A stretch of DNA of 23,492 nucleotides from Escherichia coli (GTDB lineage: Bacteria; Pseudomonadota; Gammaproteobacteria; Enterobacterales; Enterobacteriaceae): the NCBI RefSeq assembly GCF_003334765.1, contig NZ_QOWT01000046.1. One strand, given 5' to 3'. The translations under genes and the position numbers were made by a program. The notes below the pieces were generated by a model. That model did not search any database, had not been told where the DNA came from, and saw nothing but the letters and a program-made list of their open reading frames with translations. This document shows positions 776 through 8,901 of the stretch, in pieces; the stretch's first letter is position 1; the number at the start of each line of letters is the position of its first letter.

Positions 776-867
776 TTTGTTTTACCTCATTACAGATTTA
801 AGGGTGAACAAATCCCTGCCATTGCTGGCATATAAGAATGAAACCGGATATTTATTACGGAACTGTT

Positions 868-1059
868 TTAAAGACCTGCCGGGATTTCGTTATTATCCTG
901 GTGAATAACTTTATCGACCGGGTAACAGTTACCGGGAATTTTCTGTTCGGTTGCTGCAGTCACACACTCCTGCATTGTCCTGTGAACACTGACTGCAATA
1001 TCAACTGGCTCTCCGGAAACAAGAAAAACTGTCAGAACAAGTGCAAATGCTGTATTCAT
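868..1059 (-). CDS. Small protein with hydrophobic N-terminus (63 aa), YdfD-like by size and position
   Basis: ATG at 1057-1059 overlaps the TGA stop of dicB (ATGA coupling); AGGA SD 8 nt upstream; product MNTAFALVLTVFLVSGEPVD... has a signal/TM-like N-terminus. The longer track ORF (868..1113) is trimmed to the SD-supported start. Confidence 0.55.
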   Translation of the reverse strand: MNTAFALVLTVFLVSGEPVDIAVSVHRTMQECVTAATEQKIPGNCYPVDKVIHQDNNEIPAGL

Positions 1060-1244
1060 TGTGCACATCCTTTTTGTATCGGACGTAAACGGGCCAGCAT
1101 TGAAAGAATGCATATTTTATTTAATAACTCCCGTTCGTGTTTTCTCTTGTTAATGGCATCTTCAGTAAATACAGGGTTACTGATAGTGACACCAATTTCA
1201 AAACAACCTTCAGACGTATTAACGTTTGGTAATAACGTTTCCAT
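1056..1244 (-). CDS. dicB: Cell-division inhibitor DicB (62 aa)
   Basis: Internal Met of track ORF 1056..1349 with GAGGA SD 7 nt upstream; product METLLPNVNTSEGCFEIGVTISNPVFTEDAINKRKHERELLNKICILSMLARLRPIQKGCAQ matches my recollection of DicB in sequence and length; sits immediately downstream of DicF as in the Qin dicB operon. Confidence 0.75.
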   Translation of the reverse strand: METLLPNVNTSEGCFEIGVTISNPVFTEDAINKRKHERELLNKICILSMLARLRPIQKGCAQ

Positions 1245-1413
1245 TATCGCGTCCTCAACAATGAATTTTGTGATGCGGTGCCTGGTGCCTCCAGGTGACG
1301 TTAACCAGTTAACAATTAACGCCGGATACAGAGAATCCACCCATAACACTGTTTTTGGTTTTAACTGTTCCGCGTGCGCTGAGCCGCATTCACCGCATCA
1401 CAAAATTCACTTT

Positions 1414-1471
1414 AAAAAGGGCGGCAGAGCAGTCACGGAGTAAAACTGATACCGCCAAACGTCACCAGAAA
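1414..1471 (-). ncRNA. dicF: DicF small regulatory RNA (53-nt core 1419-1471 plus U-tract)
   Basis: Reverse complement of 1419-1471 reads TTTCTGGTGACGTTTGGCGGTATCAGTTTTACTCCGTGACTGCTCTGCCGCCC, which matches DicF as I recall it, followed by TTTTT; located just upstream of dicB. Confidence 0.85.
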
Positions 1472-2687: not shown

Positions 2688-2792
2688 GTTCTTACGCCTC
2701 GGGCTGGCTACTTAACCCCTGACCACTGCCTGGTAACTCGAAGTATTGCCCTGCATTCTGTGGGGCGGGGTGGGTTGGTATGAAAAGAAGGA

Positions 2793-2829
2793 TACCCATA
2801 GGTATTTAAAAAGTAAATACCTATGGGTA
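2793..2829. promoter_or_regulatory. Perfect 16-bp inverted repeat (TACCCATAGGTATTTA / TAAATACCTATGGGTA), candidate left operator and/or bidirectional terminator
   Basis: Arms at 2793-2808 and 2814-2829 are exact reverse complements; T-rich runs follow on both strands; lies about 40 bp past the repressor stop and upstream of the leftward operon. Confidence 0.5.
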
Positions 2830-2871
2830 AATTTTTGCGGTGTCTTAACTGGTGACTAGTTGTTTGGTGAG

Positions 2872-3291
2872 CTATGATGCGTTTTGTGCTTTCTTTTTAC
2901 GGATTTCTTCGTAGATCATATTGTAATACTGTTTTTTCTCTTCAAGAGTTTTTAATAATTTATCCGCTTCACTTTCTGGCAGTTCGTCTAAGAGATCTAA
3001 AAAAATACGTTGTCGTGGCGTTAGAACCCTTGTTTCATAACTGGAGGCTGTGTTCGTTGATGATGAAACGATACCATCCATCCATCCCCGGGGTAACCCA
3101 AAGGACTCTTCGATAATCTCCACCATATCATCAGCGATCCGTTTTTTTCCCTTTTTCCCCTCTGGGTACAACATTCTTGATACATAAGAAGGCTCGCGCC
3201 CGATCTTTCTGGCCACGTTAACCGCTTTACCATCGCATTTCTCATCACGAATTTTGATGAGTTGCTGTCGTCTAAATTCATATTTGTCCAT
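2872..3291 (-). CDS. Prophage repressor (cI/DicA-like HTH protein, 139 aa)
   Basis: Divergent from the Cro-like gene across an operator-bearing intergenic region; HTH-like segment KAVNVARKIGREPSYVSRML; C-terminal LPESEADKLLKTLEEKK resembles the DicA C-terminus as I recall it. Confidence 0.7.
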   Translation of the reverse strand: MDKYEFRRQQLIKIRDEKCDGKAVNVARKIGREPSYVSRMLYPEGKKGKKRIADDMVEIIEESFGLPRGWMDGIVSSSTNTASSYETRVLTPRQRIFLDLLDELPESEADKLLKTLEEKKQYYNMIYEEIRKKKAQNAS

Positions 3292-3391
3292 AGGTAAATA
3301 ATAGATGCGATTACCGCAAGGTAAACAACCTGTGGGTATTGACTTTTGTTTACCTGTGGGTATTCTTTGCTGTGTTTACTAAGGAGTAGCT
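3292..3391. promoter_or_regulatory. Divergent promoter/operator region (right-operator-like)
   Basis: Direct repeats CCTGTGGGTAT (x2); TTGACT, 16-nt spacer, TATTCT promoter-like elements facing the Cro-like gene; AAGGAG SD before the ATG at 3392. Confidence 0.55.
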
Positions 3392-3673
3392 ATGGAAGAA
3401 TTAAGAATATTTCTCAATTCTCTTTCGTCAGATGAACAGCGTATGTTTGCATGCGAGTGTGGTACCAGCATCGGTTATCTAAGAAAGGCATTGAGTAAAG
3501 GTCAAGTGTTAGGGGCATCGTTATGTGTCCTTATTGAGCGAGCCAGTAATGGTGAAGTTACACGTCAGCAACTAAGGCCTTTTGATTGGATGAATATTTG
3601 GCCCGAGCTGGAAGATACCAAAACGTTAACACAACCACTTTCTAGGAGCTTGATTCATGAAAATCAAGCATGA
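3392..3673 (+). CDS. Cro/YdaS-like HTH regulator (93 aa)
   Basis: Strong AAGGAG SD; first gene of the rightward operon; segment GYLRKALSKGQVLGASLCVLIERASNGEVTRQQLRP resembles the YdaS family by recollection. Confidence 0.7.
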   Translation: MEELRIFLNSLSSDEQRMFACECGTSIGYLRKALSKGQVLGASLCVLIERASNGEVTRQQLRPFDWMNIWPELEDTKTLTQPLSRSLIHENQA

Positions 3674-4082
3674 ACACATCCGCATGGCGATGAATGTCTG
3701 GGCGCATCCGGACGGCGAAAAAGTGCCGGCTGCGAAAATTACCAAAGCGTATTTCGAGCTGGGAATGACGTTCCCGGAACTGTATGACGACAGCCATCCG
3801 GAAGCCCTGGCCCGTAATACCCAGAAAATTTTCCGTTGGCTGGATAAAGACACCCCTGATGCTGTTGAAAAAATGCAGGCTCTGTTACCGGCGATCGAAA
3901 AGGCGATGCCGCCTTTGCTGGTGGCCCGTATGCGCAGCCACAGTTCTGAATATTACCGTGAGATCGTCGAACGGAGGGATCGGCTGGTGAAGGATGTCGA
4001 TGATTTTGTTGCGTCAGCGGTTGTTTTGTATGACCAGATGAATCGCGGCGGCCCGGCAGGGAATGCTGTGGTGATGCACTAA
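3657..4082 (+). CDS. YdaT-like protein (141 aa; family annotated as putative toxin or cII-like regulator)
   Basis: AGGAG SD; overlaps the Cro-like gene by 17 nt; size and position match Rac YdaT downstream of YdaS. Confidence 0.65.
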   Translation: MKIKHEHIRMAMNVWAHPDGEKVPAAKITKAYFELGMTFPELYDDSHPEALARNTQKIFRWLDKDTPDAVEKMQALLPAIEKAMPPLLVARMRSHSSEYYREIVERRDRLVKDVDDFVASAVVLYDQMNRGGPAGNAVVMH

Positions 4083-5211: not shown

Positions 5212-6407
<1,196 letters not shown>

Positions 6408-6861
6408 CTAATACTGGGGCAACAAGATATCTGATGAGCGTTCTGGCCAGAGAGCTGGTTGCCAGTGGCGATGTATACAACTCTGGTTACGGGTTATTCC
6501 CGTCTGAACAGGCGCGTAAGGACTGGCAAAATGCCCGTAAAAAGCTCTCAAGGGCAAAGCTGAAGAAACCATCTGCGGTTGATCCGGACCTTATCTGGTC
6601 ATTACCTGACGGAGAAATACGTCGCTACGACAGGCGTCAGAACATAATCTGTCGCGAGTGCCGGAAGAGTGAAGTTATGCAGCGCATATTGTCGTTTTAT
6701 CAGGGTGATGTTCGGTATTTATTGAAGTGACGAGATTAAAGTGCATTAGTTCAGATGCAAATTGACATTTTGTGGCACAGGGTAGAGCTAGCGTGGTTGT
6801 CCGCTTTGTGCCAATAGCGGACATTGCTGGCTCATGGTATGTTAGTTTAAGGAGGCAGGTT

Positions 6862-7884
6862 ATGCCCTGTATTTCGCTGTGGTATAATAGTTGCGCAATT
6901 GATACAAGGGAGCGTTACATCGTGAAAATTGTTTTCGAGGTTAATGGAAAGAAAGTTCCACTAAAATCTTTAAAATACATAAGCAAAAAAGATCAACTCG
7001 AAGTAATGAAAAACTGGTTCTTTGAAAACTTTGAAGATCCGGCAAATGCTTGTCCGTATGAAAGTAGAGAAGGTGGCTATGCTTACATATATGGCGGGCC
7101 GTATGATGCGAGCGAAGAACTACAATCCATCTTCGGTCAATATGTTAAATCTGAGTATATTGAGGAATTAGTAGATGAATTACAAACACAATGTTTTGAC
7201 TGGTCTGGAAACTCAAATAATATAGATGATTGGTACGATGATGATATCTACGACGCTGTAACGTCTTCCGGTAATCCGTATTTAAAATTCATTGATAATA
7301 TCGATAAAATAAAAAAACTTGCAAAAGATAAAACTGAACAACAGCAAAAAAACCACTTGCTTAGTTTGCTCTACACGAATGTTATTACAGCTTTGGAAAC
7401 GCTTTATGTTGAGCTATTCATTAATTCTATAGAGAAAGATGATGTCTACATAGCCAATTGTATAGAAAAAGGTAAGACTGAATTTAAAGTAAGCAAAGAT
7501 ATTGCTGCGTTGCCTTTCAAGGGTGAACCCATCGAGAAAATTAGGGGAGAGCTAATCAGGTCAATCAAGGAACACTTGATCAGTGCAAGCTGGCATAGCA
7601 CTAAAAAGGTAATCGACCGCTATGAAGCTACATTCGATATAAAAGTACAAAAAGACTGTCCGATAGAAGCTATTGAATTGGCAACCCTCAATCGAAATCA
7701 CTTAGTGCATCGTGGTGGAAAGGATAAAGAAGGGAACCTCGTAGTGATTACAGACCAGGATCTTGAAACGCTGATTGAAAATGCATCGAACCTGGCAATT
7801 ATGCTCTACAACAGTTTAAATGTAGCAACGAATAAAACCACCATTTTGCAACCAGATGACAAACCGTTCATTCATGAATTTTAA
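6862..7884 (+). CDS. Hypothetical cargo protein with a C-terminal HEPN-like R-x4-H motif (start ATG 6862, or GTG 6922)
   Basis: Visibly AT-rich; GGAGG SD 6 nt before ATG 6862; an extended -10 TGGTATAAT at 6879-6887 suggests the GTG 6922 start instead; RNHLVH at nt 7693-7710 within a helical C-terminal region. Confidence 0.6.
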   Translation: MPCISLWYNSCAIDTRERYIVKIVFEVNGKKVPLKSLKYISKKDQLEVMKNWFFENFEDPANACPYESREGGYAYIYGGPYDASEELQSIFGQYVKSEYIEELVDELQTQCFDWSGNSNNIDDWYDDDIYDAVTSSGNPYLKFIDNIDKIKKLAKDKTEQQQKNHLLSLLYTNVITALETLYVELFINSIEKDDVYIANCIEKGKTEFKVSKDIAALPFKGEPIEKIRGELIRSIKEHLISASWHSTKKVIDRYEATFDIKVQKDCPIEAIELATLNRNHLVHRGGKDKEGNLVVITDQDLETLIENASNLAIMLYNSLNVATNKTTILQPDDKPFIHEF

Positions 7885-7899
7885 TAGCGCAGGTCATAC

Positions 7900-8901
7900 A
7901 TGGATATTCGCACACGAAAGACAAAATTTTTAGAGTCGTTAGATTCAACTGAAGTGATACGCAAAGCAGTAAGTCTCGCTATAGATTGCATTATTGATAA
8001 TCATAATAGTAATGAAGATACCCCCTTAGTTATTACCAGCTATGATGATCTCTGTAGAATCCAGGTGCTAAATTATGTACAGGAGTTTTGCGAAGCTGCA
8101 TTCCCTGATATGGATGAATATTACTTTAGTCCTAACATACTTCGCATCAACGGCAAGACTAGTGAAGAAGCTTGTATTAACTTAATTAAACTCTTAAGAA
8201 GTACAAAAGGCATGCTATTCTGGTCCGATGCCCCATCGTGGTTCGCTAGCCTCCCCGACGGATTATTCCATGTTGTTAACATTGATCAAAAAATCGTTAC
8301 TCGCGGCCTTAATAAGAAAAACTCTAAGCCGACAATAATCAATAAAGATTACAGTGTAGATACACTACTATCAGAGCTATTTTTGAATGGCGCACACATG
8401 GAGCAACCCAACGTACACAACGTTTCTGAGGGAAACATGAAGTTCTATGATGAATGCCATGCTGGATTAATCAGACCAATACCCGCTCCAATAGGCGCGT
8501 CATACGATGAAGAGATCACAATTAATTCTCCAGATTGGCAAAAGCTCGCGTGTGTAGCTTTACGCCGCTATCAGTCGAAGGAATGTCATGACGGAATGCA
8601 ATGGGATACAACCGATCATGGTTGGACTGATGTAATCGCGTATCCATTCGTCGAAGAAATACAATCAATGGATAATAGTGGTTATCGACAATGTTTAGTT
8701 GGGCTGGTCACAATAAACAATTCAAATGCAAATTCTCCGTACCTATCTACCGTTTGGATACATCTATTTTATCGCAGGAGAGGGTTATTAAGTAAGTTAT
8801 GGCCAAAATTACAAGAGTTATATGGAAGTAACTTCGAAATTGAGCGACCTAATGAAAATATGAAAGCATTTCTGAAAAGTGCGAAACACGCAGATTACTA
8901 A
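7900..8901 (+). CDS. Hypothetical cargo protein (333 aa), partner of the preceding gene
   Basis: Same strand, 15-bp gap, same AT-rich composition; C-terminal LSTVWIHLFYRRRGLLSKLWPKL loosely resembles a GNAT-type beta-strand/R-x-x-G motif (weak). Confidence 0.6.
   Translation: MDIRTRKTKFLESLDSTEVIRKAVSLAIDCIIDNHNSNEDTPLVITSYDDLCRIQVLNYVQEFCEAAFPDMDEYYFSPNILRINGKTSEEACINLIKLLRSTKGMLFWSDAPSWFASLPDGLFHVVNIDQKIVTRGLNKKNSKPTIINKDYSVDTLLSELFLNGAHMEQPNVHNVSEGNMKFYDECHAGLIRPIPAPIGASYDEEITINSPDWQKLACVALRRYQSKECHDGMQWDTTDHGWTDVIAYPFVEEIQSMDNSGYRQCLVGLVTINNSNANSPYLSTVWIHLFYRRRGLLSKLWPKLQELYGSNFEIERPNENMKAFLKSAKHADY

Follow-up and report, generated by a model that had tools for sequence, protein, structure and literature searches.

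Repressor and cro genes are divergent in the immunity region of phage lambda. Three dyad operators (right operators, OR) cover the rightward promoter (PR) and the repressor maintenance promoter (PRM), and a second set (left operators, OL) covers a leftward promoter (PL) that resembles PR; here and below, statements on lambda rest on general knowledge and PMC8630535. The closest experimentally dissected relative of the switch considered here is that of CP-933P, a cryptic lambdoid prophage of Escherichia coli O157:H7. In this system PaaR2, a repressor without a cleavage role, stands opposite a YdaS-type Cro and a YdaT-type analogue of CII. The paaR2 mRNA is leaderless, the operators of repressor and Cro overlap, and PL is a copy of PR (PMC8630535). 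We analysed a 23,492-nucleotide stretch of the E. coli contig NZ_QOWT01000046.1 (the window), which carries a repressor gene facing a cro-like gene and, beyond the repressor gene, a leftward operon of the type found in the defective prophage Qin of strain K-12. Its positions 2776–3649 very probably constitute the immunity cassette of a defective, Qin-like lambdoid prophage, with a lambda-type switch that would use three OR and two OL sites.

Two sets of repeats mark the region. An interrupted inverted repeat, 37 bp overall, begins 43 bp beyond the stop codon of the open reading frame (ORF) for the 139-residue repressor. Its arms at 2793–2808 (TACCCATAGGTATTTA) and 2814–2829 (TAAATACCTATGGGTA) are 16 nt each, 100% complementary and separated by 5 nt. 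A direct repeat of 13 bp (ACCTGTGGGTATT) is located between the repressor start (3291) and the cro-like start (3392), in two identical copies (3328–3340 and 3352–3364) that are 24 bp apart. Both repeats are built from one 12-bp dyad, TACC-N4-GGTA. The inverted repeat consists of two such sites placed head to head at a distance of 25 bp, and each direct repeat covers the two-thirds nearest cro of one of two sites spaced 24 bp. The first-pass annotation had described a perfect 16-bp palindrome, direct repeats in the divergent promoter region and a GGTA-type motif common to both. The complementarity of the arms is indeed complete, but the palindrome is not contiguous and represents two sites rather than one operator. 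The direct repeats are present and slightly longer than reported, and the shared motif is real, with the whole dyad as its true unit.

Exact copies of TACC-N4-GGTA occur four times in the window (2793, 2818, 3312 and 3351), all within the examined region, where 0.14 copies are expected in the entire window; none of 100 shuffled sequences reached four. A fifth site with a single mismatch (AACCTGTGGGTA, at 3327) lies between the two right-hand exact sites. The further right-hand site at 3312–3323, 15 bp beyond OR2, had been missed by the annotation. Other one-mismatch matches, at 1220, 3740, 15131, 17280 and 18382, were rejected because the frequency of such matches is that of chance, with 10 in total where 5.3 are expected. 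A possible fourth right-hand site at 3288–3299 (TGTCCATAGGTA), at a distance of 24 bp from OR3 and overlapping the start codon of the repressor, was not counted as an operator: one of its half-sites has two mismatches, and neither phage mEp043 nor the other loci described below have a counterpart.

The repressor and cro-like genes are divergent across a gap of 100 bp, matching the layout of a lambda-type switch, and the three right-hand sites overlap the predicted hexamers of PR and PRM (Table 1), as multiple operators do in such switches. The −35 hexamer of PRM is made up of the OR3 half-site nearest OR2 and two flanking bases. The −10 hexamer of PRM is followed after 6 nt by the repressor ATG, and the gene lacks a Shine-Dalgarno sequence. 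The predicted start therefore appears to be the A of the ATG itself (3291), giving a leaderless mRNA. A −10-like hexamer at exactly the same distance from the repressor ATG, again without a Shine-Dalgarno sequence, is found in six loci.

The same operators recur at 2793 and 2818 over a PL-like promoter, whose hexamers were read by analogy. Across OL and PL the minus strand reads TACCCATAGGTA-TTTACT-TTTTAAA-TACCTATGGGTA-TCCT, so that PL/OL forms an inverted near-copy of PR/OR1–OR2 with the same operator register. PL would lead the leftward operon with its ydfA-like gene, DicF, dicB and exonuclease gene. Corresponding elements are present in other loci, where a −35-like TTGAC or TTTAC follows the distal OL site and a −10-like TATATT or TATAAT starts with the TA of the proximal GGTA. 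The earlier suggestion that left and right operator sets serve this repressor is thus borne out by sequence comparison, in that the same unit lies on both sides and tracks the DNA-binding domain of the repressor, with the number of sites corrected to three right and two left.

Table 1. Operators, predicted promoters and genes of the immunity region in the window.
Feature	Position	Strand	Sequence	Remarks
OR1	3351..3362		TACCTGTGGGTA	exact match; overlaps PR spacer and −10
OR2	3327..3338		AACCTGTGGGTA	one mismatch; abuts PR −35; centre 41.5 bp upstream of predicted PRM start
OR3	3312..3323		TACCGCAAGGTA	exact match; overlaps PRM −35 and spacer; likely autorepression site
Predicted PR	3339..3366	+		−35 TTGACT (3339–3344), 16-bp spacer, −10 TATTCT (3361–3366); start predicted near 3373; consensus promoter scan 9/12
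Predicted PRM	3298..3325	−		−35 TTTACC (3325..3320), 16-bp spacer, −10 TATTAT (3303..3298); consensus promoter scan 9/12
OL1	2793..2804		TACCCATAGGTA	exact match; nearest PL; overlaps predicted PL −10
OL2	2818..2829		TACCTATGGGTA	exact match; distal left operator, 25 bp from OL1, directly upstream of PL −35
Predicted PL	2789..2817	−		−35 TTTACT (2817..2812), 17-bp spacer, −10 TATCCT (2794..2789); start near 2782
OL2/OL1 hairpin in repressor-sense RNA	2793..2829	−	followed by UCCUUCUUUUC (2792..2782)	putative rho-independent terminator for the repressor transcript from PRM; transcript 3′ end predicted near 2785–2790
Repressor gene	2872..3291	−		139 aa; N-terminal helix-turn-helix (~residues 1–72), disordered linker, DicA-like C-terminal helical domain
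cro-like gene	3392..3673	+		93 aa; YdaS-type helix-turn-helix; Shine-Dalgarno AAGGAG at 3381–3386; 73% identical to mEp043 Cro
ydaT-like gene	3657..4082	+		141 aa; overlaps the cro-like ORF; functional analogue of lambda CII
YdaT-type operator	3650..3667		TTGATTCATGAAAATCAA	exact TTGATT-N6-AATCAA; at the 3′ end of cro-like, across the start codon of ydaT-like (3657)

The arrangement shares with lambda the divergent repressor and cro genes, the three dyad operators over PR and PRM, the 24-bp distance between OR1 and OR2, the location of OR2 at about −42 of PRM, the leaderless repressor mRNA (predicted here) and the second operator set over a PR-like leftward promoter. Several differences can be observed. 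The recognition core is 12 bp long, compared to a 17-bp site in lambda, OL contains two sites instead of three, and OR2 and OR3 are 15 bp apart rather than 23 bp. OL lies 43 bp after the repressor gene without rex between them. The 139-residue repressor has no S24 autocleavage domain, and a YdaT-type protein takes the place of CII. CP-933P differs in its operators, which are 18-bp palindromes with a GTTTAGTAA-type consensus, four in OR and three in OL (PMC8630535). Its repressor is co-transcribed with the paaA2-parE2 toxin-antitoxin genes, whereas no gene separates the repressor from OL in the window.

We fetched loci by homology to the N-terminal domain of the repressor and compared 11 of them: the window, mEp043, loci of Serratia, Yersinia and Chromobacterium, Mannheimia phage 587AP2, and five metagenomic or metagenome-assembled genome contigs (G+C 51–59% in the four of these for which it was computed). 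Sites about 72 and 47 bp upstream of the repressor ATG were present in every locus examined except Mannheimia 587AP2, which has the same three-site pattern at a different offset from the ATG. A third site about 32 bp upstream of the ATG is found in most loci and is degenerate or under the scan threshold in some. Ten of the 11 loci carry an OL pair with a spacing of 25–26 bp upstream of leftward genes, at a variable distance downstream of the repressor; the pair is missing in one short contig. Over 35 sites from seven loci, the bases of the TACC half-site occur in 35, 35, 35 and 34 sites and those of GGTA in 34, 35, 33 and 28. The centres of the strong sites OR1, OL1 and OL2 are mostly of the YRYR type, those of OR3 irregular. 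The half-site of OR2 that faces OR3 is degenerate in every locus, reading GGTT, GGTC, GGTG, GGGC or GGGA in repressor-sense orientation. TACC-N4-GGTA-like sites are also present in Xanthomonas phage Rb1 (locus L004, ~1990–2060), where the annotated CI start seems to lie downstream of the true start at MDRYEVRR.

One of these loci is that of mEp043 (PV340537, NC_019706). The N-terminal domain of its cI is 65% identical to that of the window repressor (tblastn), and residues 32–56 (REPSYVSRMLYPEGKxGKKRIADDM), the predicted recognition stretch, are identical save one. Three sites with spacings of 25 and 15 bp lie in the cI-cro gap and two sites 25 bp apart lie upstream of N, so that motif, site number, spacing and promoter register agree with the window in both OR and OL. 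Other features of the phage differ. Its cI has 228 residues with a C-terminal domain of ~140 residues, taken as LexA/S24 type from a GDSM motif, and about 100 residues of this domain are without counterpart in the window repressor in the alignment. OL is located ~400 bp downstream of cI, past one more gene and a separate terminator-like hairpin (read by eye), and the phage carries a lambda-type CII and N.

Phage Tritos presents the reverse case. In a megablast search of the region against phages, only the flanks matched, exposing the boundaries of a mosaic. The flanks of Tritos are ~95% identical to the window and the cassette between them is replaced: homology ends at ~2775, just beyond the PL −10, and resumes at 3650, still within the cro-like gene near its 3′ end. 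In Tritos CI, a C-terminal domain ~75% identical to that of the window repressor (counted from the alignment) is joined to an unrelated N-terminal domain. No TACC-N4-GGTA sites are found in Tritos, which has its own repeats and promoter hexamers at the OL/PL position. Since mEp043 has the motif and Tritos does not, the motif follows the N-terminal domain rather than the C-terminal domain or the flanks. The breakpoints lie just outside OL and just before the ydaT start, indicating that OL, repressor gene and OR move as one module, which includes all but the last 24 bp of the cro-like gene. The right breakpoint coincides with the YdaT-type site at 3650–3667.

Variation within the immunity type points to the same sequence unit. 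A scan of viral contigs with the N-terminal-domain alignment returned 80 loci, all 100% identical to the window in this domain; they served for within-type variation but not for distant footprinting, for which divergent loci were retrieved individually. The comparison within the type covers 76 IMG/VR loci with 46 distinct sequences. Operator substitutions fall mainly in the central N4 (positions 3355–3358, 3331–3334, 3317, 2799–2800 and 2822–2823), and TACC and GGTA are nearly untouched. In OL1 the outer TACC and GGTA are invariant among the 46 sequence variants, and in OR1 only the central N4 varies, save one change at 3362. Further exceptions are a single variant at 3312 and position 3315, where the TACC of OR3 becomes TACT in 10 of 47 variants. 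This change, together with a centre that departs from the YRYR pattern, makes OR3 probably the weakest of the sites. Direct observations comprise the sites with their statistics and conservation, and the way in which they co-vary with the N-terminal domain.

The first-pass annotation had also proposed a distinct immunity specificity. This holds with respect to Tritos and CP-933P, from which the window differs in operator sequence, but the specificity is not unique. It is probably common to mEp043, judging from the half-sites and the predicted recognition helix, which the two share and which make cross-immunity plausible. We take the operator specificity to be distinct also from those of lambda, 434 and P22. 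We found no paper that describes these operators or those of mEp043 in a partial coverage of the literature.

The repressor itself is mostly labelled 'hypothetical protein' in RefSeq, and also phage repressor; in PHROGs it matches phrog_5736, 'transcriptional regulator' (E 6e-70). The AlphaFold2 model (mean predicted local distance difference test score 83) contains helices at residues 3–18, 23–30, 34–40 and 54–63, a disordered linker (77–86) and a helical pair (92–103 and 106–138). The modelled N-terminal domain has the XRE/cI helix-turn-helix fold of the 434, P22 c2 and lambda cI type. Its closest solved relative is Rep of Salmonella phage SPC32H (PDB 5d50, 5d4z; family profile against 5d50_A, E 2.8e-6), which differs in its length of 198–199 residues, in its C-terminal domain and in the absence of a 5-residue insertion in the YPEGKKGKK loop. 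Over its last 50 residues the window repressor resembles DicA (NF007257, E 1.9e-5). The protein is not DicA, because the match reaches 24.5 bits against a curated cut-off of 101 and covers these residues only. As with DicA in Qin, a short repressor without a cleavage domain resides in a defective prophage; the N-terminal DNA-binding domain of the window repressor belongs to another family.

An S24 autocleavage domain with its Ser/Lys dyad was not found: Pfam gave no domain, and the C-terminal part consists of two helices. RecA-mediated cleavage is therefore not expected. Rep-type repressors are controlled by a cognate antirepressor, itself usually under LexA. The LexA box CTGT-N8-ACAG has no match in the window, and no antirepressor gene was found there.

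The repressor gene contains homopolymers (plus strand: T7 at 3142–3148, T5 at 3153–3157), with A-runs that encode KKGKK. Several database proteins (P0054, P0055, P0050 and P0068) start in an alternative frame, corresponding to the window ORF 3021..3281 on the minus strand, and rejoin the repressor frame at KKRIADD. These proteins, some of which come from complete E. coli genomes, have the appearance of natural frameshift alleles in which the DNA-binding domain is disrupted.

The OL pair can also be read as RNA. In the repressor-sense transcript it would fold into a hairpin with a 16-bp stem and a 5-nt loop (−22.5 kcal/mol, z = −8.1), followed by the U-rich UCCUUCUUUU. The inverted repeat scores as terminator-like on both strands, and a stable hairpin with a U-rich tract 3′ of a gene is what defines a rho-independent terminator; here the stem is AT-rich, with 5 G-C pairs, and the U tract is interrupted. 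By sequence, no other terminator-like element was found between the repressor stop codon (2872) and PL, and PL transcripts would begin downstream of the hairpin. The stem is kept in all 18 distinct variants, with sense-strand energies of −18.2 to −26.0 kcal/mol, partly by G.U pairs that are possible on the repressor-sense strand only. The common allele has CATG opposite TATG, yielding a G.U pair in the sense RNA, and several A-to-G changes in the flanks likewise keep pairing on this strand only. In 11 of the 18 variants, corresponding to 62 of the 76 loci, the hairpin of the sense strand exceeds its antisense counterpart in stability. The ATTTA/TAAAT extension of the stem occurs only in the window lineage, where OL abuts the repressor gene; in the seven loci whose OL sequences were read, the flanks of the sites are not complementary. 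Taken together, these features suggest that the hairpin may have a second role as terminator of the repressor transcript.

Several points weigh against a complete lambda-type switch at this locus. PL is weak: it scores 8/12 to consensus, which falls under the threshold of the promoter scan, and since the scan did not call it, we infer it from the layout. The perfect palindrome is a minority allele, present in 8 of the 76 related loci, and the IMG/VR variants are related by descent, so that their counts are not independent events. The hairpin potential is partly automatic, as two near-palindromic sites are always partly complementary. The 15-bp spacing of OR2 and OR3 is unlike that of lambda, and cooperativity and autoregulation may deviate from the lambda scheme. 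It could be proposed that 2793–2829 is only a bidirectional terminator closing the repressor gene, and that only the sites of the divergent region bind protein. The terminator-like scores on both strands, the folding energy, the place of the hairpin directly after the gene with no intervening terminator and the preservation of G.U pairs across variants would all fit such an element. We nevertheless regard it as unlikely, as each arm of the hairpin holds the same exact TACC-N4-GGTA unit as OR, and the whole OL region is a near-copy of PR/OR1–OR2. In nine other loci, leftward genes are preceded by site pairs with a spacing of 25–26 bp and with −35 and −10 hexamers in an equivalent register; there the pairs lie 0.7–2.3 kb away from the repressor gene and, in the seven loci mentioned above, lack the complementary flanks. 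Moreover, the roles of terminator and operator are compatible.

The comparison does not separate the repressor from the cro-like protein as the binder of the sites, since each of them accompanies the motif. The sites might be bound mainly by the YdaS-type Cro-like protein or by some other factor, and the 139-residue protein might not be the maintenance repressor or might bind elsewhere. Most of the loci that carry the motif also have a cro-like gene (in locus L093 none was called), its product is 73% identical between the window and mEp043, and the Pfam search identified no DNA-binding domain in the 139-residue protein, which also counts against the interpretation as a repressor. This possibility is quite improbable in our estimation. 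The N-terminal domain of the protein is homologous to the depositor-annotated cI of mEp043, Mannheimia 587AP2 and Xanthomonas Rb1, which are 225–228 residues long and join the same domain to a much longer C-terminal region. Its predicted fold is an XRE/cI helix-turn-helix and its closest solved relative is a phage repressor. In lambda-type switches, among them that of CP-933P, for which footprints exist, the operators are common to repressor and Cro (PMC8630535). Finally, the repeats could have arisen by chance or be functionless remnants of a local duplication. The resemblance of PL/OL to an inverted duplicate of PR/OR speaks for this, as does the defective state of the prophage, in which IS5 has inserted and parts of a terminase and a tail fibre have been fused. 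With no shuffled sequence giving four sites, an architecture kept across several genera and metagenomes, half-sites almost invariant next to variable centres, and an intact cassette in 822 of the 5,426 complete E. coli genomes (in 676 with at least 99% identity), such an origin is hardly credible.

A lambda-type switch of three OR and two OL sites would operate as follows. From the sequence we infer the promoters, the binding order, the activation of PRM, the termination and the binding itself. The 139-residue repressor would bind the TACC-N4-GGTA dyads as a dimer through its N-terminal helix-turn-helix, with YRYR centres and T/A-rich flanks marking the strong sites. OR1 would cover the PR −10 and OR2 abut the −35, so that occupancy of both would turn off cro, ydaT and the replication genes. 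Occupancy of OR2 probably needs cooperative binding with OR1, given the conserved weak half-site of OR2 and its 24-bp distance from OR1. Repressor bound to OR2 would sit 41.5 bp ahead of the PRM start, where CI of lambda is located when it activates PRM, and occupancy of OR3 would result in autorepression. On the left, OL2 and OL1 would bracket the PL −35 and cover the −10, silencing the operon of the ydfA-like gene, DicF, dicB and exonuclease. Presumably the YdaS-type Cro-like protein occupies these sites too, in the reverse order of preference. The OL hairpin probably ends the PRM transcript before the dicB operon. Derepression, if any, would need an antirepressor or loss of the repressor.

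A wider reading joins the double use of OL with the spread of the DNA-binding domain, and we hold it to be possible but somewhat doubtful. According to this reading, the OL pair would act as DNA by binding repressor and holding PL, and as a 37-nt RNA element by terminating the leaderless PRM transcript. In parallel, one DNA-binding domain with its operator set (TACC-YRYR-GGTA) would circulate in gamma- and beta-proteobacterial phages together with interchangeable C-terminal domains, either long and taken as S24-type or short and DicA-like. If the double use is true, the repressor gene would be insulated from the DicF/dicB operon by its own operator. If the shared domain is true, phages with a common immunity would differ in their induction.

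The proteins encoded to the right of PR follow the pattern of CP-933P. The cro-like protein matches phrog_35, 'transcriptional repressor', and is named 'transcriptional regulator' or 'YdaS family helix-turn-helix protein' in RefSeq; it is expected to bind the same operators as the repressor. The YdaT-like protein matches phrog_163, 'CII-like transcriptional activator' (E 3e-47), and is a 'toxin YdaT family protein' in RefSeq. TTGATT-N6-AATCAA has one exact match in the window, against 0.09 expected, placed as a YdaT-controlled PRE-like element would be. The footprinted OM site of CP-933P YdaT is of the same sequence class and in the same position, with the identical TTGATT-N6-AATCAA at the end of ydaS (PMC9986795).

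The leftward operon carries Qin-type cargo. It contains a DUF1391 ydfA-like gene, the antisense small RNA (sRNA) DicF (1470..1419, minus strand; Rfam, 76.7 bits), dicB and ydfD homologues (~860–1350, minus strand) and an exonuclease gene. At the other end of the window, the ORF at 22115–22930 (plus strand) joins an N-terminal fragment of the terminase large subunit (~residues 9–87) to the C-terminus of a tail fibre (87–271). The whole morphogenesis region is thus apparently deleted, and the prophage is defective.

A replication O-like gene is immediately followed by an IS5 transposase gene, after which come two AT-rich ORFs of 370 and 333 residues (5280–6260, 6772–7884 and 7900–8901). PADLOC gave nothing convincing for the cargo ORFs beside IS5, and the 370- and 333-residue ORFs, which were without match, may be unknown cargo. 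A short ORF at 6242–6730 has a weak SIR2-like match (E 1.5e-4). Rfam matches at 9350–9524, 14049–14295, 14374–15051 and 23273–23471 comprise a sok antitoxin RNA (hok/sok-type), three tRNA genes, two copies of the STnc100 sRNA and an IS009 RNA.

Genomes carrying the cassette include the sequence type 131 (ST131) strain EC958, avian pathogenic strains and some O157:H7. The design is an ordinary lambda-like one, in a repressor family whose operators we did not find described. Because it is textbook, the gain is an annotation and a usable model of a very common E. coli prophage repressor, not a new principle. The consensus and site map give a basis for predicting which phages, for instance mEp043, would be excluded by the resident prophage or cross-talk with it, and the natural domain swaps offer a way to study one operator set coupled to different induction routes. 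The operon that the predicted left operator would control encodes the cell-division inhibitors DicF and DicB. The pair of repressor and operator therefore probably equals the role of DicA in K-12, silencing the toxic operon of a cryptic prophage.

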